64,000 bases of DNA. It comes from Pseudomonadota bacterium (GTDB lineage: Bacteria; Pseudomonadota; Gammaproteobacteria; Pseudomonadales; JADFDG01). Positions 41,420-53,907 of the stretch are shown piece after piece. Both the position numbers and the translations under genes were made by a program. Position 1 is the stretch's first letter, and each line of letters starts with the position of its first letter. The DNA lies in NCBI GenBank assembly GCA_049323295.1, contig JBMOON010000050.1, forward strand, positions 344,790 to 408,789. Direction: 5' to 3'. The notes below the pieces were generated by a model. The model did no database searches. It was not told the origin of the DNA and saw only the letters and a program-made list of their open reading frames with translations.

Positions 41420-42766
41420 TCACTTCTTGGCGATCCCGAGTTTCTTCTCGAGATAGTGGATGTCGACGCCACCGTTCTCGAAGTGGGTGTCGCGGAAGAT
41501 CTGTTCCTTGTGCAGCGGAATGTTGGTGCGGATGCCGTCGACCACGATTTCGTCCAGCGCATTCTTCATGCGCCGGAACGCGCCGGCACGATCGTCGCCG
41601 AAGGCGATGACCTTGCCGATCAGCGAATCGTAGTTCGGCGGTACGGTGTAGCCGCTGTAGACATGCGAGTCGACACGGATACCGTTGCCGCCGGGCGCGT
41701 GGAAATAGGTGATCTTGCCGGGGCAGGGGATGAAGGTTGCCGGATCTTCGGCGTTGATGCGCGCCTCGAAGGCATGCCCCTTGATCTTCACGTCCTTTTG
41801 CGTGAACGACAGCCCCTGGCCGGCGGCGATGCGGATCTGTTCCTTCACGATGTCGACGCCGGTCACCATTTCGGTCACCGGGTGTTCGACCTGCACGCGG
41901 GTGTTCATCTCGATGAAGTAGAAACGTTCCTTTTCGTACAGGAACTCGAAAGTTCCGGCGCCGCGATAGCCGATGTCGATGCATGCCTTGACGCAGGCAT
42001 TCGCCACTTCGTCGCGCAGCGCCTGCGGGATGTGCGGCGCGGGCGCTTCCTCGACCACTTTCTGGTGGCGGCGCTGCAGCGAGCAGTCGCGATCGCCCAG
42101 GTGCACGGCATGGCCGTTGCCGTCGGCGAGGATCTGGATCTCCACGTGGCGCGGATGTTCCAGGAATTTTTCCATGTAGACCGTTTCGTCGCCGAACGCG
42201 GCCTTGGCTTCCGAACGGGTGACGAACAGCGAGTTGAGCAGCGCGCTCTCGGTATGCACCACGCGCATGCCGCGACCGCCGCCGCCGGCTGCGGCCTTGA
42301 TGATCACCGGGTAACCGATTTTCTTCGCGGCCTCGATCGCGTTCTCTTCCGTCACCGGGCCGCCGGAGCCGGGCACGGTCGGCACGCCGGCCTTTTTCAT
42401 CGCCTCGATGGCCGATACCTTGTTGCCCATCAGGCGGATGGTGTCGGCGCGCGGGCCGATGAAAGTGAAGCCGGAGCGTTCCACCGCTTCGGCGAAATCG
42501 GCGTTCTCGGCGAGGAAGCCGTAGCCGGGATGGATGCCCTGGGCGTCGGTCACTTCCGCTGCGCTGATCAGCGCCGGAATGCTGAGGTAGCTGTCCTTGG
42601 AGGCGGCCGGGCCGATGCACAGCGCTTCGTCGGCCAGCCGCACGTGCATCAGGTCGCGGTCCGCCTTCGAATAGACGGCGACGGTGCGGATGCCCATCTC
42701 CTTGCAGGCGCGCAGGATACGCAGCGCGATTTCGCCACGGTTGGCGATCACGATCTTGTCGAGCAT
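41420..42766 (-). CDS. accC: Acetyl-CoA carboxylase biotin carboxylase subunit
   Basis: 448 aa. The product starts [26 protein letters not shown] and has ATP-grasp motifs throughout. Confidence 0.96.
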
Positions 42767-42782
42767 GTCGGTACCGTAATCG

Positions 42783-43241
42783 TCAGACGATGGTGAACAG
42801 CGGCTGGTCGAATTCGACCGGCTGGCCGTTTTCGACCAGGATGGCTTCGATCACGCCGGACTTGTCGGCGGTGATCTGGTTCATCATTTTCATGGCCTCG
42901 ACGATGCACACCACGTCGCCGACCTTGACCGAAGCGCCGACTTCGACGAACGAGGGCGAGCCCGGCGACGGCGAGCGATAGAACGTGCCGACCATGGGCG
43001 AGCGCATCACGTGGCCGCTGCGCTTGTTTTCTTCCTTCTTGCTGCCTGCATCGGCCGGCGCGGCGGCAGCCGGTGCCGGCGCGGCGGCGGCCGGCGGTGC
43101 CGCCATCGCGTAGGTGACCGGACCGGACGGCGGGCGGTTGCGGGCGATGCGCACCGTTTCCTCGCCTTCCTTGATTTCCAGCTCGTCGATGCCGGATTCC
43201 TCGAGCAGTTCGATCAGTTTCTTGATCTTGCGGATGTCCAT
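42783..43241 (-). CDS. accB: Acetyl-CoA carboxylase biotin carboxyl carrier protein
   Basis: 152 aa with the biotinylation motif [11 protein letters not shown] and a Pro/Ala linker. Confidence 0.93.
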
Positions 43242-43312
43242 GTGTCTCGGGTGCCTTGTGGGACGGGTGAGGTGGACGCCGCCGCTCCGGATGGGGTCGG
43301 CGGCAGTTGGGT

Positions 43313-43747
43313 TCAGAGTCGTTTCAGGGCGGCGGCAAGGGCCAGCTCGTAGCTCTGGGCGCCGAGGCCGCTGATGACGCCGACGGCGACATCGGAGAAG
43401 TAGGAGTGCTGCCGGAACGCCTCGCGCGCGTGGACGTTCGACAGGTGCACTTCGATGAACGGGATCTGCACCGCGAGCAGCGCGTCGCGCAGTGCCACCG
43501 AGGTGTGGGTGAAGGCGGCCGGATTGATCAGGATGAACTCGACGCCTTCCTTCTTCGCCTCGTGGATGCGCTCCACGAGTTCGTACTCGGCGTTGCTCTG
43601 CAGGGTCAGCAGGTGATGGCCGGCGGCCTTCGCGGCGGCGGCGAGCCGGCCGTTGATGTCGGCCAGCGTATCGGTGCCGTACTTGTCCGGTTCACGGCTG
43701 CCGAGCAGGTTCAGGTTCGGCCCGTGCAGCACCAGGATGGTGGCCAT
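43313..43747 (-). CDS. aroQ: Type II 3-dehydroquinate dehydratase
   Basis: 144 aa with [17 protein letters not shown] and [12 protein letters not shown] motifs. Confidence 0.93.
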
Positions 43748-43930: not shown

Positions 43931-45793
43931 TCAGCCGGATCCCTGCAGGTTCGGGTCAATTCGGGTTTTCAGCCAGTCCAGGAAGGCCGCCTCGTCCTGT
44001 TCGCCGAGGATCCGCTGGCCGGTCACTTCGCTGCCGTCGGGGCGGAAGAAGAGGATGGCCGGCAGGCCGGGGATCCCGTACTCGCGCAGCAGGGCCGCGT
44101 TGGCGTCGGTGTTGGCGGTCACGTCGACCTGCAGCAGGACATAGCCGGCCAGCGCGGCCTGGACGGCAGGGCGGGGGAACACGTTGCGGGCCATGATCCG
44201 GCAGGCCACGCACCAGTCGGCGTAGAAGTCGAGCATGACCGGTTTGCCGGCGGCCCGGGCCTGCGCCAGCGCCTGCTGCAGGGCGGCGGAATCCGGCACC
44301 CGGACGAACAGGGAGTGGCGGTCGGCGGCGGTGACCGCGCCGCCGGCAAAGGGCTGCAGCGGAGCCAGCGGATCGTCGCCGCCGGCCGCGGCGCCCGCCC
44401 CCAGGGCCAGGCCGTAGGCGAGCAGGGCGACGCCGGCGGCCTTGCGGAACCAGCGCCACCCGGTCGCGGCTGCCGGCACCGGTTCCAGCGCGCCCAGATA
44501 GACCCCCGAACCGATCGCCAGCAGGGCCCACAGCGCCAGCGTCACCGGACCGGGGAGGATGCGGGCGAGCAGGATCACCGCCACCCCGAGCAGCAACACG
44601 CCGAAGGCGGCCTTCACCCCGTCCATCCAGGCGCCGGCTTTCGGCAGCAGGCGGCCACCGGAGGTGCCGATCAGCAGCAGCGGGATGCCCATGCCGAAGG
44701 CCAGCGCGAACAGTGCGGCGCCGCCGAGCACGGCATCGCCGGTGGCGCCGATGAACATCAGGGCGCCGGCCAGGGGCGCCGACACGCAGGGCGATACCAC
44801 CAGCGCCGACACCGCTCCCATCAGTGCCACCGATCCGAAACCGCCGCCGCGCTGTCCGCTGCCGGCCAGCCGGTCGCGCAGGAAGGCCGGCAACTGCAGC
44901 TCGTAGAAGCCGAACATCGACAGCGACAGCAGCACGAACAGCAGGGCGAACACGACCAGCACCGGCGGCGACTGCAGCCACAGCTGGATGTTGAATGCGG
45001 CGCCGACCAGGCCGATCGCCACGCCGGCGAGCGTGTAGGTGAGCGCCATGCCGAGCACGTAGGCCAGCGAGAGCAGGAAGGCGCGGCGGGTGGAAATCGC
45101 GGCGCCTTCGCCGACGATGATCGACGACAGGATCGGCACCATCGGCAGCACGCAGGGGGTGAAGGCCAGCCCGATGCCCAGCAGCAGGAAGGTGCCGGCG
45201 ATCGCGAGGAACGAGGCGCCGGCCAGGAAGCCGGCCAGCGAGCCGGCGTCGTTGCCGGCAGGAGCAGCCGGCGTGACGGCTGCCGGTTGCGTGCCGGATC
45301 CGGCAGGGGCCGCCGCTGCCGACATGCCGGTGAAATCCACCGGCCATTCTTCCGTTTCCGGGGCGTAGCAGAAGCCCGCCTCGGCGCAGCCCTGGTAGGT
45401 GATGCGCAGCGTGGCGGGTGCGGACGGCACGCTGCGCAGCGGCAGCCGCAGCGCAACTTCGTGGTGATATACCTCGACCAGTCCGAAGATCTCGTCGTCC
45501 TTCATCTCGCCGCGCGGTGCTTCCGGCGCGCCGAGGGCGTCGATCGCATTGCCGGCGGCATCGACCAGCGCGAAGCGGAACTTGTCGCGATACAGGTAGT
45601 AGTCGTCGGCGATTTTCCAGCGGGCGATGAAGGCGTGGTCGTCGCGTTCCAGGGTCAGCGCGAAGGCTTCGCGCACCGGCAGGAAATCGTCTTCCGATGC
45701 GGTGCCCGGCAGGGCGGCGGCGGCACCGCCGGCGAACAGCAGCAGCCAGCACGACAGCAGCAGGCGGAAGATCGGGGCGCGGGCGGTCGGCAT
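43931..45793 (-). CDS. dsbD: Thiol:disulfide interchange protein DsbD
   Basis: Track ORF trimmed to MPTARAPIFRLLLSCWLLLFAGGAAAA (ATG at 45791-45793). It has an alpha domain (YQGCAEAGFC), a polytopic beta domain with the two TM Cys contexts (FTPCVLP, VSPCVSAP) and a thioredoxin gamma domain (FYADWCVACR). Confidence 0.9.
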   Translation of the reverse strand: MPTARAPIFRLLLSCWLLLFAGGAAAALPGTASEDDFLPVREAFALTLERDDHAFIARWKIADDYYLYRDKFRFALVDAAGNAIDALGAPEAPRGEMKDDEIFGLVEVYHHEVALRLPLRSVPSAPATLRITYQGCAEAGFCYAPETEEWPVDFTGMSAAAAPAGSGTQPAAVTPAAPAGNDAGSLAGFLAGASFLAIAGTFLLLGIGLAFTPCVLPMVPILSSIIVGEGAAISTRRAFLLSLAYVLGMALTYTLAGVAIGLVGAAFNIQLWLQSPPVLVVFALLFVLLSLSMFGFYELQLPAFLRDRLAGSGQRGGGFGSVALMGAVSALVVSPCVSAPLAGALMFIGATGDAVLGGAALFALAFGMGIPLLLIGTSGGRLLPKAGAWMDGVKAAFGVLLLGVAVILLARILPGPVTLALWALLAIGSGVYLGALEPVPAAATGWRWFRKAAGVALLAYGLALGAGAAAGGDDPLAPLQPFAGGAVTAADRHSLFVRVPDSAALQQALAQARAAGKPVMLDFYADWCVACRIMARNVFPRPAVQAALAGYVLLQVDVTANTDANAALLREYGIPGLPAILFFRPDGSEVTGQRILGEQDEAAFLDWLKTRIDPNLQGSG

Positions 45794-45845
45794 CGGCAGG
45801 TTCCGGTCGGGGTTGCTGGACGGTGCTGCAGTGTCGGGGGTCAGC

Positions 45846-45862
45846 GTTAAGGGCTGCTTAAG
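45846..45862. promoter_or_regulatory. Palindromic motif GTTAAGGGCTGCTTAAG, copy 1 (candidate operator, dsbD-proximal)
   Basis: TTAAG-N5-CTTAA dyad located 53 nt upstream of the dsbD start. It matches copy 2 at 15 of 17 positions. It is AT-rich in a GC-rich intergenic region. Confidence 0.35.
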
Positions 45863-45961
45863 CGATGGGAACACAGGGTTCGCGGCCGGATTCCGTATCC
45901 GGCGCCCGGCGGTCGGGGATTCTACCCGCACGGCAGGCGGTCCGGTTTTCCGCAGCAGGCG

Positions 45962-46021: not shown

Positions 46022-46486
46022 ATGCCTGCCAACGTTGCCCGTCGTTCTTTCCTGCGGAAAAGCCTGTGGCTGCTGTGCGGGCTGCTGCTGTTGCCGGCTG
46101 CAGTGCCGGCTGCGGGACTCGATCTGGCCGCCCATCGCGGCAAGGTGGTCTATCTGGATTTCTGGGCCTCCTGGTGCGTGCCCTGCCGGAAATCGTTCCC
46201 CTGGCTGAACGAGCTGGCCGCCCGCTATCCCGACGATCTGGTGATCGTCGGCATCAATGTCGACCACGAGCGTGCGGCGGCGGACAAGTTCCTCGCGAAG
46301 TACCCGGCCTCGTTCCCGCTGGCTTTCGATCCCGACGGTCTGCTGGCGAAGGAGTACCGGCTGCAGGGCATGCCGTCGAGCGTCATCGTCGACCGCGAAG
46401 GCCGGATTGCCGAACGACACATCGGTTTCCGCGAAGAGCAGAAGCCGGCGTACGAATCGGCGCTGAAAAAACTGATGGGCAGATGA
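46022..46486 (+). CDS. Secreted TlpA/ResA-like thioredoxin-fold thiol:disulfide oxidoreductase
   Basis: 154 aa. The signal peptide or anchor (LWLLCGLLLLPAAVPAAG) is followed by the active site YLDFWASWCVPCRKSFP. GGAGG lies 7 nt upstream of the ATG. Confidence 0.88.
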   Translation: MPANVARRSFLRKSLWLLCGLLLLPAAVPAAGLDLAAHRGKVVYLDFWASWCVPCRKSFPWLNELAARYPDDLVIVGINVDHERAAADKFLAKYPASFPLAFDPDGLLAKEYRLQGMPSSVIVDREGRIAERHIGFREEQKPAYESALKKLMGR

Positions 46487-46514
46487 TCCGGCCGGTACCG
46501 GAGGCGGAGTGAGC

Positions 46515-46727
46515 ATGAAAACCGCGATCGTATCGGCAGCGCTGGCCTTGCTGGCAGGCTGCAGCAGCATGGGCGTGGAGCCCTGGGAGCGCGACGTGCT
46601 CGCGCGACCGGAAATGAACTTCGGCCACGATGCCGTGGCGCGCGGTCTGGACGACCACATCTACTTTTCCAAGGAGGCGTCCAGCGGCGGCCGCGGATTC
46701 GGCGGTGGAGGTTGCGGATGCAACTGA
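46515..46727 (+). CDS. Small lipoprotein, DUF4266-like, ending GGGGCGCN
   Basis: ATG at 46515 (the track begins at GTG 46509), with GGAGG upstream. The lipobox is LLAGC (Cys16). The mature peptide is about 55 aa with a Gly-rich tail and a C-terminal Cys-Gly-Cys-Asn. Confidence 0.75.
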   Translation: MKTAIVSAALALLAGCSSMGVEPWERDVLARPEMNFGHDAVARGLDDHIYFSKEASSGGRGFGGGGCGCN

Positions 46728-47941
46728 AAAATCCAGGCCGGATTTCCGGCGCGGTCGCCATGGCGGCCGGGTCCCTGCTCGGCAGCCACGCGGTTGCCGG
46801 CGACGGGAAATGGCAACTCGACACTTCGTTGATGTATTACGGCGAAACGGATCGCGTGACGGCGGTGGAGCCGGTGCTGAACGCACGCCGCGAACTCGGC
46901 GAGGACGAGTTCCTCAACGTGAAGATGGTTCTGGATTCGCTGACCGGCGCTTCGCACAACGGCGCCCCGGTGCGACCCCGGGTGCAGACCTTCACCAGCC
47001 CGAGCGGCCACAAGACCTACGACGTGCCCGCCAATACCGTGCCGCTGGACGAATCGTTCAAGGACACGCGCGGCAACGTTGCCCTGTCCTGGGAGCGCCC
47101 GCTGGCCAATCCGCTGTGGCGTTCGACGCTCGGCACCAATGTGTCTTCCGAATTCGATTTCTTCTCGTTCGGTGTCAACGGCAGTCTGGCCCGCGACTTC
47201 AACCGGCGTAACACCACGGTCACCGGCGGCCTGTCGGTCGAGAGCGATGTCATCAGCCCGGTCGGCGGCGTGCCGGTTCCGCTGGCGCCGGTCAACATCG
47301 CGTCGCCGGACAGTGCGAAGGACGGCAGCGAGGAAACCCGGACCGTCACCGACGTGCTGCTGGGCGTGACCCAGGTGCTGGGACGCAACACCATCGCGCA
47401 GCTGAACTACAGCCTGAGCATGTCGAGCGGTTATCACAACGACCCGTACAAGGTGGTGGCCGACGACAGCGTGACGGCAGCGCCGGGCTCGTTCTACTAC
47501 GAGTCGCGGCCGGACAGCCGCACCAAGCATGCGCTGTACGGCGAGCTGAAACACGCGCTACCGAACCGCGACGTGGTCGATGCGTCCTACCGCTTCATGA
47601 CCGATGACTGGGGTATCGTTTCGCATACCGTCGACCTGCACTACCGGCATTTCCTGCGCGCCGACTGGTTCGTCGAGCCGCACGTCCGCTGGTACGCACA
47701 GGGCGAGGCCGACTTCTGGACCGAAGCCCTGCCGGCGGCGCCGGCGCCCGGCGATTTCGCGTCCGGCGATTACCGGCTGGGTGCGCTGACCGACACCACG
47801 TTCGGCGCGAAAATCGGCAAGCGTCTCGGCGAAGACCGCGAGATCAGCATGCGCGTCGAATCCTTCCAGCAGAGCGGCGACACCGAGGCAGCGGACGTCT
47901 CGGCGCTGATCCTGGAGTTCGGGTACAGTTTCCGCTGGTGA
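46718..47941 (+). CDS. DUF3570-like predicted outer-membrane beta-barrel protein
   Basis: ATG at 46718 (the track begins at TTG 46712), with GGAGG 7 nt upstream; it overlaps the preceding gene by 10 nt. It has a signal peptide, an alternating amphipathic pattern and the C-terminal beta-signal LILEFGYSFRW. It also contains DSLTGAS at 46934-46954. Confidence 0.8.
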   Translation: MQLKNPGRISGAVAMAAGSLLGSHAVAGDGKWQLDTSLMYYGETDRVTAVEPVLNARRELGEDEFLNVKMVLDSLTGASHNGAPVRPRVQTFTSPSGHKTYDVPANTVPLDESFKDTRGNVALSWERPLANPLWRSTLGTNVSSEFDFFSFGVNGSLARDFNRRNTTVTGGLSVESDVISPVGGVPVPLAPVNIASPDSAKDGSEETRTVTDVLLGVTQVLGRNTIAQLNYSLSMSSGYHNDPYKVVADDSVTAAPGSFYYESRPDSRTKHALYGELKHALPNRDVVDASYRFMTDDWGIVSHTVDLHYRHFLRADWFVEPHVRWYAQGEADFWTEALPAAPAPGDFASGDYRLGALTDTTFGAKIGKRLGEDREISMRVESFQQSGDTEAADVSALILEFGYSFRW

Positions 47942-47968: not shown

Positions 47969-48628
47969 ATGCGCGTATTGCTGGTGGAGGACGACGAGCT
48001 GCTCGGCGACGGCCTGCGCACGGCGCTGCTGCGCACCGGCCATGCCGTCGACTGGCTGAAGGACGGCGAGCACGCGCGCCAGGCCGTTGACGGCGAGGGT
48101 GCGGAACACTGGGACGTTGTCCTGCTCGATCTCGGGTTGCCGCGCCGTGACGGCATGGAAGTGCTGCGGACCATCCGCCGCCGGTCTGCCGTGCCGGTGC
48201 TGGTGATGACGGCGCGCGACCAGGTCGATGACCGGGTGCAGGGACTGGACGCGGGTGCCGACGATTATCTCGTCAAGCCGTTCGACATCGCGGAACTCGA
48301 GGCCCGTCTGCGTGCCGTCAGCCGCCGGCGCGCGGGACGCGCGACCGACGAGCTCCGCTGTGGCGACCTGCGGTTGCTGCCGGCAGCGCAGGAGGCATTC
48401 TGGCGTGGCGAACGCATCGATCTGACCCGGCGCGAGTACATGCTGCTGTCGACGCTGGTCGACAACGCCGGCCGCGTGCTCACCCGCGACCGCCTCGAGC
48501 AGGCGCTGTACGGCTGGGGCGACGACGTCGACAGCAACGCACTCGAAGTCCACATCCATCATCTGCGGCGCAAGCTGGCACCGGATTTCATCCGCACGGT
48601 GCGCGGCGTCGGTTATTCGGTGGGCTGA
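47969..48628 (+). CDS. OmpR/PhoB-family response regulator (QseB/PmrA-like)
   Basis: 219 aa. The receiver (MRVLLVEDDELL, VVLLDLGLPRRDG, DDYLVKPF) is followed by a winged-helix domain (LTRREYMLLSTL, IRTVRGVGY). Confidence 0.92.
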   Translation: MRVLLVEDDELLGDGLRTALLRTGHAVDWLKDGEHARQAVDGEGAEHWDVVLLDLGLPRRDGMEVLRTIRRRSAVPVLVMTARDQVDDRVQGLDAGADDYLVKPFDIAELEARLRAVSRRRAGRATDELRCGDLRLLPAAQEAFWRGERIDLTRREYMLLSTLVDNAGRVLTRDRLEQALYGWGDDVDSNALEVHIHHLRRKLAPDFIRTVRGVGYSVG

Positions 48629-50076
48629 TGGCCGCCGGATCGCGCTTCTCCATCCGCCGTTACCTGCTGGCCACGCTGCTGGCGCTGCTGGTGCTCGGCA
48701 TGGGCGTGGCCGGCGTGCTGGCCTACCGGGCCGCGCTGTCGGAAGTCGAGGAGTTGTTCGACGCGCAGCTGGCGCAATCGGCGCGGGTGCTGATCGCCAC
48801 TCTGGCCACCGGCCCGCTGCCGGGCGAGGCAACCGGCGAGCCGGTCGTGTTTCCGGCCTGGCGACCGGCGCCGGGCGCGCTGCCTGCCGCGCCGGCGACC
48901 GGTGCCGCGGCGATCGCCGACGACGAAGCCACGCCATCCGGTCATCGTTACGAGACGCGACTGCTGTTCCAGGTGTGGCGGGGTGCGGGCGAGCGGTTGC
49001 TGATGCGTTCCTCGAACGCGCCGGAGCGACCGCTGGTGGCGTTCACCCCGGGTTATGCGCAGATCTGGATCGGCGACGAGCGCTTCCATGTCTTCGTGCT
49101 CGAGCACGACGGAGTCTGGCTGCAGGCCGCGCAGGACGATTACATGCGCGACGAGCTGGCAGGCGACATCGCGCAGGCGACGCTGCTGCCTTACCTGCTT
49201 GCCGTACCGTTGATGGCGCTGTCGATCTGGTGGCTGGTGAGCCGCGGCCTGCGGCCGCTCGACCGCCTGCGTGCGGCGCTCGCCGGGCGGGGCGTCGGCA
49301 ATCTGGCGCCGCTGTCGGCCGCCGGCGGCAGCACCGAGCTGCAGCCGCTGGTCGACGAGCTCAACCGGCTGCTCGCCCGGCTGCACGATTCGTTCGCCCG
49401 CGAACGACGCTTCACCGCCGATGCGGCGCACGAGCTGCGCACGCCGCTGGCGGCGCTGCGCGTGCAGGCAGAAAATGCCGCCGCCGCCACCGACGAAACG
49501 GCGCGGCGCCGGGCGCTGGATAACCTGCTGCACGGCGTCGACCGGGCGAGCCGGCTGGTTTCGCAGATGCTCATCATGGCGCGCCTGGAACCGGAAGACG
49601 TGGCGCGCTCGTTCGTGGCGGTACCGGTCGGCACCCTGGTCCGCGAGGAACTCGCCGCGCTTGCGCCGCTGGCGCTGGCGCGCGGCCAGGAGCTGGATTT
49701 TCTCGACGAATCGGCCGGGCTCGCGGTGCCGGGTGATGCGCCGGCCCTCGGCATCCTGGTGCGCAATCTGGTGGACAACGCGTTGCGTTATTCGCCGCCG
49801 GGCTCGCTGGTGCGGGTGCTGTTGCGGCCGGTGGAGCCGCGACAGCTCGAACTGCGGGTGCTCGACGAGGGTCCGGGCGTGCCGCCGGCGCTGGGTGAGC
49901 GGGTATTCGAACGCTTCTTCCGCGGCGACAGCGGCGACGGCGACGGTGCCGGCCTCGGTCTTGCCATCGTGCGCCGCATCGTCCAGCTGCACGGCGGCGC
50001 AGTGTCGGTGCTGCCGCGGCAGGGCACGCTGCCCGGCGGTTTCCGGGTCGTGCTGCCGGCAGTGGCGACACCGTGA
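48628..50076 (+). CDS. Sensor histidine kinase (QseC-like, two TM with periplasmic loop)
   Basis: 482 aa. The start overlaps the regulator stop (TGATG). It has an H-box (FTADAAHELRTPLAAL) plus N, G1 and G2 boxes (LVDNALRYSP, DEGPGV, GAGLGLAIV). Confidence 0.9.
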   Translation: MAAGSRFSIRRYLLATLLALLVLGMGVAGVLAYRAALSEVEELFDAQLAQSARVLIATLATGPLPGEATGEPVVFPAWRPAPGALPAAPATGAAAIADDEATPSGHRYETRLLFQVWRGAGERLLMRSSNAPERPLVAFTPGYAQIWIGDERFHVFVLEHDGVWLQAAQDDYMRDELAGDIAQATLLPYLLAVPLMALSIWWLVSRGLRPLDRLRAALAGRGVGNLAPLSAAGGSTELQPLVDELNRLLARLHDSFARERRFTADAAHELRTPLAALRVQAENAAAATDETARRRALDNLLHGVDRASRLVSQMLIMARLEPEDVARSFVAVPVGTLVREELAALAPLALARGQELDFLDESAGLAVPGDAPALGILVRNLVDNALRYSPPGSLVRVLLRPVEPRQLELRVLDEGPGVPPALGERVFERFFRGDSGDGDGAGLGLAIVRRIVQLHGGAVSVLPRQGTLPGGFRVVLPAVATP

Positions 50077-50966: not shown

Positions 50967-51007
50967 ACGGCGATCGTGTCGCCGTCCGGCAACGACAGTC
51001 GTATGGA

Positions 51008-51952
51008 ATGCCGTTCATGGAACAGCCACCCGGCGAAAACCGTCTCGAAACCTTTCTGCTCGACAGTGCCGCGCGACCGCGCCGCGGTACCGGGCGCTGG
51101 TTGCCGCGCATCCTGCTGGTGCTGGGCCTGCTGGCGCTGATGTTCGGCGGCTGGTGGAGCCGCGAGCCGGCCGTGCCCGATGGCCGGGTGCCGCCGGATG
51201 CGGCGCCGGGCGTCGCCGTCACGGCGGCGCTGGTCGCCACCGTGCGCACGCTGCTGGAGAAGCCGGGCGGCTTCCTGGCCAACGATGCGCTGCCGCCGGG
51301 CGTGCTGCTCGACAACATGCCGGCCTTCGAGAACGGCGCGCTGGCCGCTTCGCGCACCCTGCTGCGGGCACTGCGCCGCGATTTCAGCCGTGCGCAGACG
51401 CAGTCGGTCGAGGATCCCGATCTGCTGCGCGCCGAACCGCGACTGAACTTCGACAGCGGCAGCTGGCTGGTGCCGTCGGCGGAAAGCGAATACGGCGATG
51501 CGCTGGCGGCACTCGAAAACTATCTGGCACGCCTGCAGATGTCTCCGCCGGGTGCGCGGTTCCAGGCGCGTGCCGACAACCTCGGGCGCTGGCTCGACGA
51601 GGTCGGCGCGCAGCTGGACGAACAGGGACGCCTGCTGGCGACCGCCCGCCACGACACGCCCTGGCTGGCGATCGACGACCGTTTCTATTTCACGCGCGGC
51701 TATTGCTGGGCGCTGCGGGCGCAACTGCTGGCACTGCGCCGCGACTTCGCGACCACGCCGGCACTCGATGCCGGTTTCGCCGCCGCCCTGCATGCGCTCG
51801 ACGGTACGCAGCAGCCGGTGACCAGCCCGCTGATCCTGAACGGCGGTGAATACGGCGTGCTTGCCAACCACTCGCTGGTCATGGCCGGTCATGTCGGGCG
51901 TGTCGCGGCCGCCCTGCGACAGCTGCGCGTACCGGGGCCGGCGGGCGACTGA
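51008..51952 (+). CDS. DUF2333-like protein with N-terminal TM anchor
   Basis: In-frame ATG at 51008 (alternative 51017) within track ORF 49271..51952. The TM is WLPRILLVLGLLALMFGGWW. The family call rests on the conserved stretch GGFLANDALPPGVLLDNMPAFENG and is from memory. Confidence 0.72.
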   Translation: MPFMEQPPGENRLETFLLDSAARPRRGTGRWLPRILLVLGLLALMFGGWWSREPAVPDGRVPPDAAPGVAVTAALVATVRTLLEKPGGFLANDALPPGVLLDNMPAFENGALAASRTLLRALRRDFSRAQTQSVEDPDLLRAEPRLNFDSGSWLVPSAESEYGDALAALENYLARLQMSPPGARFQARADNLGRWLDEVGAQLDEQGRLLATARHDTPWLAIDDRFYFTRGYCWALRAQLLALRRDFATTPALDAGFAAALHALDGTQQPVTSPLILNGGEYGVLANHSLVMAGHVGRVAAALRQLRVPGPAGD

Positions 51953-51954
51953 CC

Positions 51955-53907
51955 ATGGTCGTGACGACCGGGCTGCACGAAGCGCTGGAACGCATCGCGG
52001 CGACGGGCGATGCCGATGCGCTGGGCAGTCTGTTGCCGGCGCTGCGCCGTGCCGAGGGCGAACAGGCCGGTGCCGGCATCGACGCGCTCTGCCATTTCCT
52101 CGAGCACTACCCGGCGTACCGCAAGGCGCTGCGGTACCTGCTCTGCCGGCTGCTCGGCGACGACAGTGCGCCGGCGTTGTATGCCGAAACCGGCATCCTC
52201 GCCAACACCGGCTTCGTCACCGAATTCGGTCGTCGCCTGCTCGGCAAGGTGTTGCCGCCGCCGCGCGACGACAGTCTGCGCGGTCGTTTCCACGGCTGGT
52301 TCGACGACGGCGACGCTGCGGAGTGGATCGCGGCCGTGCCTGCCGCTGCGTGGTGCCGGCTGCATGCCGCACTGCGTTTCGACGAGGACGAGCCTGCCGC
52401 ATGGCGCCCGGCACGACTCGGGCTGGTCGAGGCGCTGGCCGTGCTGTCGGTGCGAGTGGCAGCGGTCGGCGTCGAGCCGGAGCTGTTGCGGCACTACCGC
52501 GTGCCGCGCGACCACGGCAATCCTTTCCTCGCGCAGAGTGCCGAACTGCAGCGCTGGCTCGATGCCTGGCGCGCGGGAGCGGAACTGCCGGATGCGCGCC
52601 AGCTGGACGTGCTGCTGGCACAGTGCGTCGACGTGGCCGACAAGGTGCGGCGCGCCGCGCATCGTGAAGGCGCCAGTTTCCGGCTGACGTTCGTGTTGCG
52701 CCGGCTGGCGCAGCTGCTGGCGCGGATGCGTACGCTGATCGGCCTGCTGGCCGCCGGTCCCGTGCCGACGCCGGCCCTCGTGCAGGCGCGCGCGGCGCTG
52801 GCGGTCGAGCTGGTTGTCGCCGAAGCGGCCGACCACGGCATCCGGGAACATTTGCGCTCCGGCTCCGAGCTGGTCGCATTGCAGGTCACCGAGCACGCGA
52901 GCCGGACCGGCGAGCACTACATCACCGTCGATCGTCGCGAGTATCTGGCGATGTGGCGGGCGGCGCTGGGCGCCGGCGGCATCATCGGCATCATGGCGCT
53001 GGTCAAGACGCTGCTCGCCGGCCTGCACCTGCCGCCGCTGGTCGAGGCGCTGGCGTTCAGTCTCAACTACGCCGCCGGTTTCGTACTCATCTATGCGCTG
53101 CGTTTCACCATCGCCACGAAACAACCGGCGATGACGGCGCAGACCATCGCCGCGCAGCTGTCGTCCGGCCGCCGGACCGATGTCGATGCCGTGGCGCTGC
53201 TGGTATCGCGGGTGGCGCGCACCCAGTTCGTGGCCGTGCTGGGCAACGTCATGCTGGCGATGCCGGCGGCCTTTGCGGTGACCTGGCTGGCGGTGACGCT
53301 GGGCGCGGCCGCTCCGGCCGCCAAGGTGCCGGTCCTGCTGCAGGATCTCGACGTGCTGGCCAGTCCGGCGCTGTTCCATGCGGCGATTGCCGGTGTGTGG
53401 TTGTTCTGCGCCGGTCTGGTGTCCGGTTATGTCGACAATCTGGCCGCCTACGAGCGGCTGGCCGACCGGGTGCGCGCCATGCGCATGCTGCGCTCGCTGG
53501 GCGCCGGCCGACACGAGCGACTGGCCTGCTGGCTGCAGGACCACACCGGCGGCGTTGCCGGCAATCTGTTCTTCGGCTTTGCGCTCGGCATGACGGGTTT
53601 CGTCGGCATGATCCTCGGGCTGCCCCTCGACATCCGGCATGTGACGTTCGCGGCTGCCAATCTGGCGATTGCCTGGGTCGGCAGCGGGCTGGCGCTGCCG
53701 GCCGGCGTGATCCTGGTGTCGCTGGCCGGCGTGGCGCTGATCGCGCTGACCAACGTGGCCGTGAGTTTCGGTCTGGCGCTGTGGCTGGCCCTGCGCGCAC
53801 GCGGACAGGGCTTCGACAACTTCGGGCTGCTCGTCGCGGCGTTGTGGCGCCGCTTCCGGCTGGCGCCGCTGGCCTTCGTGCTGCCGCCGCGCCACGAGAA
53901 ATCCTGA
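51955..53907 (+). CDS. Polytopic membrane protein of the family historically annotated site-specific recombinase (PF10136-like)
   Basis: 650 aa, starting 2 nt after the preceding stop. A soluble N-terminal half is followed by at least 6 predicted TMs in the C-terminal half. It has no Tyr- or Ser-recombinase motifs. The family call is from memory. Confidence 0.72.
   Translation: MVVTTGLHEALERIAATGDADALGSLLPALRRAEGEQAGAGIDALCHFLEHYPAYRKALRYLLCRLLGDDSAPALYAETGILANTGFVTEFGRRLLGKVLPPPRDDSLRGRFHGWFDDGDAAEWIAAVPAAAWCRLHAALRFDEDEPAAWRPARLGLVEALAVLSVRVAAVGVEPELLRHYRVPRDHGNPFLAQSAELQRWLDAWRAGAELPDARQLDVLLAQCVDVADKVRRAAHREGASFRLTFVLRRLAQLLARMRTLIGLLAAGPVPTPALVQARAALAVELVVAEAADHGIREHLRSGSELVALQVTEHASRTGEHYITVDRREYLAMWRAALGAGGIIGIMALVKTLLAGLHLPPLVEALAFSLNYAAGFVLIYALRFTIATKQPAMTAQTIAAQLSSGRRTDVDAVALLVSRVARTQFVAVLGNVMLAMPAAFAVTWLAVTLGAAAPAAKVPVLLQDLDVLASPALFHAAIAGVWLFCAGLVSGYVDNLAAYERLADRVRAMRMLRSLGAGRHERLACWLQDHTGGVAGNLFFGFALGMTGFVGMILGLPLDIRHVTFAAANLAIAWVGSGLALPAGVILVSLAGVALIALTNVAVSFGLALWLALRARGQGFDNFGLLVAALWRRFRLAPLAFVLPPRHEKS

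Follow-up and report, generated by a model that had tools for sequence, protein, structure and literature searches.

A search for the substrates of 'orphan' apbE genes, which encode transferases that move flavin mononucleotide (FMN) from flavin adenine dinucleotide (FAD) to protein, led Méheust et al. (2021; eLife 10:e66878, PMC8238504) to the DUF3570 family (PF12094). They found [S/T]GA[S/T] motifs conserved in 228 ApbE-associated DUF3570 proteins. When the Chlorobium luteolum DUF3570 protein (ABB24424.1) was co-expressed with its cognate ApbE (ABB24423.1), flavinylation was detected by ultraviolet fluorescence, which was abolished only when Ser was changed to Ala in both motifs. They also described 'DsbD systems', in which ApbE and DUF3570 are accompanied by a thioredoxin-like protein and by a DUF4266 protein with a C-terminal CXC; 227 such clusters were reported, and in 316 others DsbD was not adjacent. 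They proposed that DsbD feeds electrons into a hybrid thioredoxin/flavin path, and left its function unresolved. Here we analyse a DUF3570 gene, its apbE gene and their neighbours in a 64,000-nucleotide stretch (the window) of a Pseudomonadota metagenome-assembled genome (GCA_049323295.1, contig JBMOON010000050.1, positions 344,790 to 408,789 of the forward strand).

The window cluster has the same content as the published DsbD systems: DsbD (PF02683), a thioredoxin-like protein, a DUF4266 protein (PF14086) with a C-terminal CXC, DUF3570 and ApbE (PF02424) are all encoded between positions 43931 and 50966. Its DUF3570 protein shares both the PF12094 family and the D-x-x-[ST]-G-A-[ST] motif with the C. 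luteolum protein. It differs from the published systems in having a two-component regulator pair between DUF3570 and apbE, and one acceptor where two were reported. Across 79 related loci, the linked genes encoded a TlpA-like protein in 68, DUF4266 in 77, ApbE in 61 and DsbD in 15; where the downstream sequence extended for 1.5 kb or more (67 loci), ApbE was found in 60. Acinetobacter modestus, Marinobacter and Shewanella are among the carriers of the cluster.

Both the role of DUF3570 as an ApbE substrate and this type of gene cluster have been known since 2021, and the window copy is an ordinary orthologue. A first reading of the sequence (the original prediction) had proposed DUF3570 as an ApbE substrate, and experimental flavinylation of a family member supports that proposal (PMC8238504). 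We consider it likely that the window cluster belongs, as an unexceptional example, to the DsbD-linked flavinylation system already published, with ApbE placing FMN on Ser79 of DUF3570. This assignment draws on the PF12094 match, the conservation of the motif, the synteny of apbE with the TlpA-like and DUF4266 genes, the C. luteolum experiment, the intact ApbE motifs, the structural matches to outer-membrane barrels, and the sufficiency of a linear motif for ApbE recognition.

The DUF3570 protein and its conserved motif

Residues 14-391 of the DUF3570 protein, numbered from the ATG at 46718, match positions 3-400 of the 427-position PF12094 profile (E = 8.1e-113, 377.8 bits against a cut-off of 25). 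As the match covers nearly the whole profile, the overlapping minus-strand open reading frames (ORFs) can be regarded as GC-rich shadow frames. An identical protein is held by NCBI as 'MAG: DUF3570 domain-containing protein [Pseudomonadota bacterium]'. The N-terminus fits a signal peptide: in an AlphaFold2 (AF2) model, residues 1-28 had predicted local distance difference test (pLDDT) values below 50, with a helix at 6-20, and the hydrophobicity of orthologue N-termini (best 10-residue hydropathy) had a median of 1.96.

Translation of the plus strand bore out the original prediction that positions 46934-46954 encode DSLTGAS. The motif was found about 46 residues after the predicted cleavage site (AVA/GD), close to the 45 first estimated. 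Its last residue, Ser79 (codon 46952-46954), is the predicted FMN acceptor in this protein. The original prediction had also named this as the sole [ST]GA[ST] sequence in the array, which holds for eight products, those of the seven cluster genes and of the PF10136 gene (DUF2333 is not among them). Among six-frame open segments of at least 100 residues from the whole window, DSLTGAS was the only match to D-x-x-[ST]-G-A-[ST]. Composition-preserving shuffles of the eight proteins produced at least one bare [ST]GA[ST] in 28% of cases, and the seven-residue form in 2.1%. Composition alone thus leaves the four-residue motif unremarkable, and it is conservation that gives DSLTGAS its meaning.

Alignment of DUF3570 homologues had been named at the outset as a way to judge the motif. 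We aligned 151 representatives clustered at 50% identity, of which 149 could be counted in most columns. Asp73 was conserved in 147/149, Gly77 in 148/149 and Ala78 in 129/149, and Ser or Thr occupied position 79 in 148/149. The aligned site also read [D/N]-x-L-[TS]-G-[A/S/P]-[ST] in all of 80 loci taken from species-representative genomes (L001-L080), with Asp in 78 and Asn in 2. These loci cover Gammaproteobacteria, Nitrospiria, Elusimicrobiota, Gemmatimonadales, Latescibacterota and Thermoanaerobaculia. Every one of the 120 closest homologues had D-x-L-[TS]-G-x-[ST] at the site, with Ala, Pro, Ser, Asn or Thr directly before the acceptor. The nearest genome locus, L001 (6527-7756; 76% identical), has TGPS at the site and retains apbE. 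The clade nearest to the window often has TGPS for TGAS, as in L001 and proteins P0002, P0007-P0009, P0014, P0016-P0020 and P0022.

Adjoining the motif is a second element, N81-G-A-P84, of the form x-[N/T/S]-G-A-x. Its core is conserved (Gly82 in 148/149 and Ala83 in 139/149), and position 84 is occupied by Val, Thr, Ala, Leu, Ile or Pro, with Ser or Thr in 35/149. As the element ends in Pro in this protein, it offers no second flavinylation acceptor, and the protein contains one [S/T]GA[S/T] match where the published description has two. Strict matches to the motif numbered one in 76 of the 120 closest homologues, none in 33 and two in 11. Méheust et al. describe the two motifs in their text without residue numbers (PMC8238504). 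Our best guess is that the tandem x-G-A-x at 81-84 corresponds to their second motif.

A further conserved element, Q90-T-F-T-S-P-S-G97, follows in the long connection after strand 3 of the model described below. Gln90 (134/149), Ser96 (146/148) and Gly97 (143/149) stand out in this loop, and form invariant columns in the homologue alignment. In some homologues (P0012, P0013, P0015, P0023, P0143, P0147, P0165 and P0253) the conserved PSG is directly followed, within this loop, by low-complexity insertions that are rich in Gly, Asp and Glu and 15-60 residues long.

Predicted barrel fold and leaderless ApbE

An AF2 model of DUF3570, built from a 32-sequence alignment, had 16 strands, with a pLDDT of 88.5 and a predicted template modelling score of 0.83. 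In a Foldseek search of the PDB the top matches were all outer-membrane barrels (BcsC, FadL, OmpG, TodX, AlgE and PelB; E down to 9e-11, probability 1.0). The protein ends in GYSFRW, with an aromatic final residue. DUF3570 is therefore predicted to be a 16-strand outer-membrane β-barrel, in support of the label that it had been given in the original prediction. Four long connections (81-109, 180-205, 239-266 and 329-356) share one side of the modelled barrel, and those on the opposite side are all of five residues or fewer. By the standard rule for outer-membrane proteins, this pattern of strands and loops, from which our topology is derived, would make both termini of the protein periplasmic. 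Strand 3 (64-80) has 17 residues, of which the motif forms residues 10-16, and so the motif would lie at the extracellular end of that strand. Leu66, Val68, Met70 and Leu72 alternate on one face of strand 3, and Asn67, Lys69, Val71, Asp73, Leu75, Gly77 and Ser79 on the other; in the model this suggests that Asp73 and Ser79 point into the barrel lumen. The barrel or outer-membrane nature of DUF3570, and a cytosolic location of its ApbE, are not mentioned in the main text of PMC8238504. DUF3570 is not discussed in a 2024 mSystems paper (PMC11334425), which refers to 'the outer membrane' in passing, or in a 2025 Journal of Biological Chemistry review (PMC12052999).

The window ApbE retains the catalytic and cofactor-binding segments GGIGKEYAVD, ATSGD and HILDPRTG in alignments to solved structures; those with 1vrm and 5mgy keep GGI[AG]K.YA.D, ATSGD and H.LDP.[ST]G. 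Its N-terminus, MNDWQVVSVGGRLHGRFSAMASPCE, has no hydrophobic region, signal peptide or lipobox, and so lacks the features of the canonical periplasmic lipoprotein. Alignments to the PDB begin at residues 47-52 of this protein, and for most solved ApbE/Ftp chains at chain residues 46-56, usually near 50. In the comparison with the Escherichia coli ApbE model, residue 49 of the window protein falls opposite position 71, which makes the window protein about 22 residues shorter at the N-terminus. These offsets indicate that the cluster ApbE corresponds to the mature domain without a leader. A longer N-terminus was considered and rejected. The ORF was called from the first start codon that follows a stop, so there is no upstream in-frame start, as the original prediction had stated, and orthologues whose ORFs reach further upstream still lack a hydrophobic segment.

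The absence of a signal peptide or lipobox, raised as a caveat in the original prediction, proved to be general. The 61 DUF3570-linked ApbE proteins share a distinctive N-terminal segment, F-x-A-M-A-S-P-C-E, with a conserved Cys. Nineteen residues precede it in the window ApbE, and in 61/61 proteins the stretch from the start to this segment is short (typically 15-37 residues) and hydrophilic. Their best 10-residue N-terminal hydropathy had a median of 0.23, with no value of 2.0 or above. For comparison, the TlpA N-termini of the same loci had a median of 2.67, and 66/68 reached at least 2.0. Neither the leaderless state of these enzymes nor the F-x-A-M-A-S-P-C-E segment is mentioned in PMC8238504 or PMC11334425.

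Two described arrangements can be set beside this one. The NqrC and RnfG proteins, with their periplasmic lipoprotein ApbE, share with the window system the enzyme family, the linear motif, a phosphoester bond from FMN to the final Ser or Thr, and an extracytosolic substrate; they differ in that the substrate there is a small soluble FMN_bind domain, unrelated in fold to a barrel, and in that the ApbE studied here has no lipoprotein signal. A passage of PMC12052999 describes a cytoplasmic ApbE of Klebsiella pneumoniae that flavinylates a soluble fumarate reductase. Both that enzyme and the window ApbE lack a signal peptide; the substrate is cytoplasmic in K. pneumoniae, whereas here it has a predicted signal peptide and an outer-membrane fold.

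Gene neighbourhood

The coordinates of the cluster and of the features within it are collected in Table 1.

Table 1. Features of the DUF3570-apbE region, in window positions. A slash marks a signal-peptide or lipobox cleavage site.
Feature	Positions	Strand	Basis and remarks
DsbD, inner-membrane thiol:disulfide electron transporter	43931..45931	- (divergent)	Pfam DsbD_TM, DsbD_N, Thioredoxin_7; NCBIfam DsbD, 619 bits
TlpA/ResA-like thioredoxin-fold protein, secreted, WCVPC active site	46022..46486	+	Pfam Redoxin, AhpC-TSA, Thioredoxin_8; NCBIfam ResA/DsbE/TlpA subfamily
DUF4266 lipoprotein, 72 residues, lipobox LLAG/C, Ser at +2	46509..46727	+	Pfam PF14086, E = 2e-22
DUF3570 gene	46718..47941	+	Pfam PF12094, 407 residues; ORF open from TTG 46712, likely start ATG 46718
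Predicted Sec signal peptide of DUF3570 (MQLKNPGRISGAVAMAAGSLLGSHAVA/G)	46718..46798	+	Sequence reading, AF2, orthologue N-termini
Flavinylation motif D73-S-L-T-G-A-S79	46934..46954	+	Translation, family-wide conservation
N81-G-A-P84, adjoining the motif	46958..46969	+	x-[N/T/S]-G-A-x element, acceptor position Pro
Conserved loop element Q90-T-F-T-S-P-S-G97	46985..47008	+	Long connection after strand 3
OmpR-type response regulator, between DUF3570 and apbE	47969..48628	+	Pfam Response_reg and Trans_reg_C
Sensor histidine kinase	48628..50076	+	Pfam HisKA, HATPase_c, 2CSK_N; stop codon overlaps apbE GTG
ApbE (FAD:protein FMN transferase), 297 residues	50073..50966	+	Pfam PF02424, E = 1e-65; GTG start
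DUF2333	about 50990-51952	+	PF10095, E = 9e-79
PF10136 'site-specific recombinase' family gene	51955-53907	+	E = 1e-192

The 5' end of the DsbD ORF has probably been called too far upstream; the likely start is at MPTARAP. The TlpA-like orthologues have Sec-type N-termini. The window protein begins MPANVARRSFLRK (46022-46120) and has an RRSFLRK-like, twin-arginine appearance, which is probably incidental, being kept in 4/68 sequences. In DUF4266 a lipobox-like site was present in 68/78 orthologues, and the C-terminal GGGCGCN, which carries the CXC, was identical in 78/78; such conservation is unusually strict for a glycine-rich tail. The DUF4266 stop codon overlaps the start of DUF3570, which suggests coupled translation. 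In 30/79 loci a similar two-component pair was linked to the cluster, with a regulator no more than 6 kb away, though its position varied. The minus strand at 41420-43747, upstream of dsbD, carries further genes: accC (biotin carboxylase), accB (biotin carboxyl carrier protein) and aroQ (3-dehydroquinate dehydratase), which were identified by eye and form a housekeeping context.

Site of flavinylation and alternative explanations

From the observed motif, its conservation, the synteny, the computed barrel model and the leaderless ApbE, the following scheme can be drawn. The cluster ApbE would take FMN from FAD and attach it by a phosphoester bond to Ser79. DUF3570 would be exported by Sec and become an outer-membrane barrel, with the motif where strand 3 ends, on the long-loop side, which we take to be extracellular. 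After the published model, electrons would pass from cytoplasmic thiols to DsbD, to the TlpA-like thioredoxin, to the CGC tip of DUF4266, to the DUF3570 flavin, and on to a further acceptor.

Several points weigh against placing the window cluster in the published system. The residue before the acceptor is Pro, Ser, Asn or Thr, rather than Ala, in 33/120 of the closest homologues, so that either the motif is widely tolerant at this position or some members are unmodified. This protein has a single usable motif, against two in the published work. The experimental evidence for flavinylation comes from the C. luteolum member of the family. Lastly, a leaderless ApbE paired with an exported substrate leaves the place and time of modification unexplained.

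This last point could be met by cytoplasmic attachment of the flavin, ahead of export. A seven-residue linear motif, D-x-x-[S/T]-G-A-[S/T], is sufficient for ApbE recognition (PMC12052999), and the substrate in the published flavinylation assay was a DUF3570 protein without its signal peptide, in inclusion bodies in the E. coli cytoplasm (PMC8238504). Together with the leaderless state of the dedicated ApbE, these results suggest that modification may precede export. In its canonical form, ApbE is a lipoprotein of the periplasm, and in Salmonella a truncated, cytosolic version did not complement (PMC12052999), which argues that modification before export is not general.

An alternative that we regard as possible but doubtful is that DUF3570 is flavinylated in the periplasm, either because the cluster ApbE leaves the cytoplasm by a route not yet recognised or because a second ApbE, bearing a signal peptide, is encoded elsewhere in the genome. 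The periplasmic location of the canonical enzyme and the failure of the Salmonella truncation both favour this, and our view of the genome is the 64-kb window, so that an exported ApbE may lie beyond it. Against this alternative stand the lack of a hydrophobic N-terminal segment in all 61 cluster ApbEs, whose hydropathy falls far below that of the TlpA N-termini, and the fact that the published test employed the cluster's own ApbE (PMC8238504). Two routes of co-export were considered and set aside. Hitch-hiking of ApbE with TlpA through the twin-arginine translocation (Tat) pathway is unsupported, as the RR motif is kept in 4/68 sequences of the TlpA alignment. Fusion to the substrate would carry ApbE out of the cytoplasm, and protein P0194 reads as such a DUF3570-ApbE fusion; it stands alone, however, and its barrel C-terminus is disrupted, so that it probably reflects a frameshift, a read-through or a faulty gene call. 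P0194 (717 residues, from the representative search) is one ORF with DUF3570 at residues 11-390 followed by ApbE at 462-707, and its C-terminal barrel strand is aberrant.

A more far-reaching version of cytoplasmic modification, which we think unlikely, is that DUF3570 is a flavin-carrying barrel that conducts electrons, from thiols to flavin, across the outer membrane, flavinylated before export and reduced by the DUF4266 tail. FMN would be added to the still unfolded, cytoplasmic precursor by the leaderless ApbE. After passage of the modified chain through SecYEG, the β-barrel assembly machinery (BAM) would fold the barrel with the flavin inside, close to the outer end of the barrel. DUF4266, anchored in the outer membrane, would thread its Gly-rich GGGCGCN tail up the lumen and reduce the flavin. 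We know of no description of flavinylation of a secreted protein before its export, nor of a covalent cofactor inside an outer-membrane barrel. In porin-cytochrome conduits of the MtrCAB type, too, a redox cofactor is associated with an outer-membrane barrel, and electrons are supplied from the periplasm. The likeness to MtrCAB is one of functional analogy only: DUF3570 has no haem and no homology to it, the cofactor here would be covalently bound to the barrel, and electron transfer across the outer membrane is hypothetical.

Lastly, it is highly improbable that the motif is conserved for structure, for example as a Gly/Ala/Ser-rich strand end, while DUF3570 of this lineage is unflavinylated and ApbE serves another substrate: the frequency of bare [ST]GA[ST] in shuffled sequences, the TGPS, TGSS, TGNS or TGTS of close relatives including L001, and 7 loci with ample flanking sequence that keep the motif without an adjacent apbE would fit this, but the near-invariant acceptor and Asp agree with the rule by which ApbE recognises its substrates, the synteny of apbE holds in most loci where it could be seen, the other window products tested all lack the motif, and there is direct experimental precedent in the family (PMC8238504).

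As a probable member of the published DsbD-linked system, the window copy adds little beyond a further orthologue, found in the metagenome-assembled genome of a Pseudomonadota bacterium. What deserves to be taken further is the pairing of a dedicated leaderless ApbE with a substrate modelled as a barrel, a mismatch that was universal in our sample. If modification does take place before export, it would change the view of how FAD is supplied for extracytosolic flavinylation, and would establish a new class of redox protein in the outer membrane.

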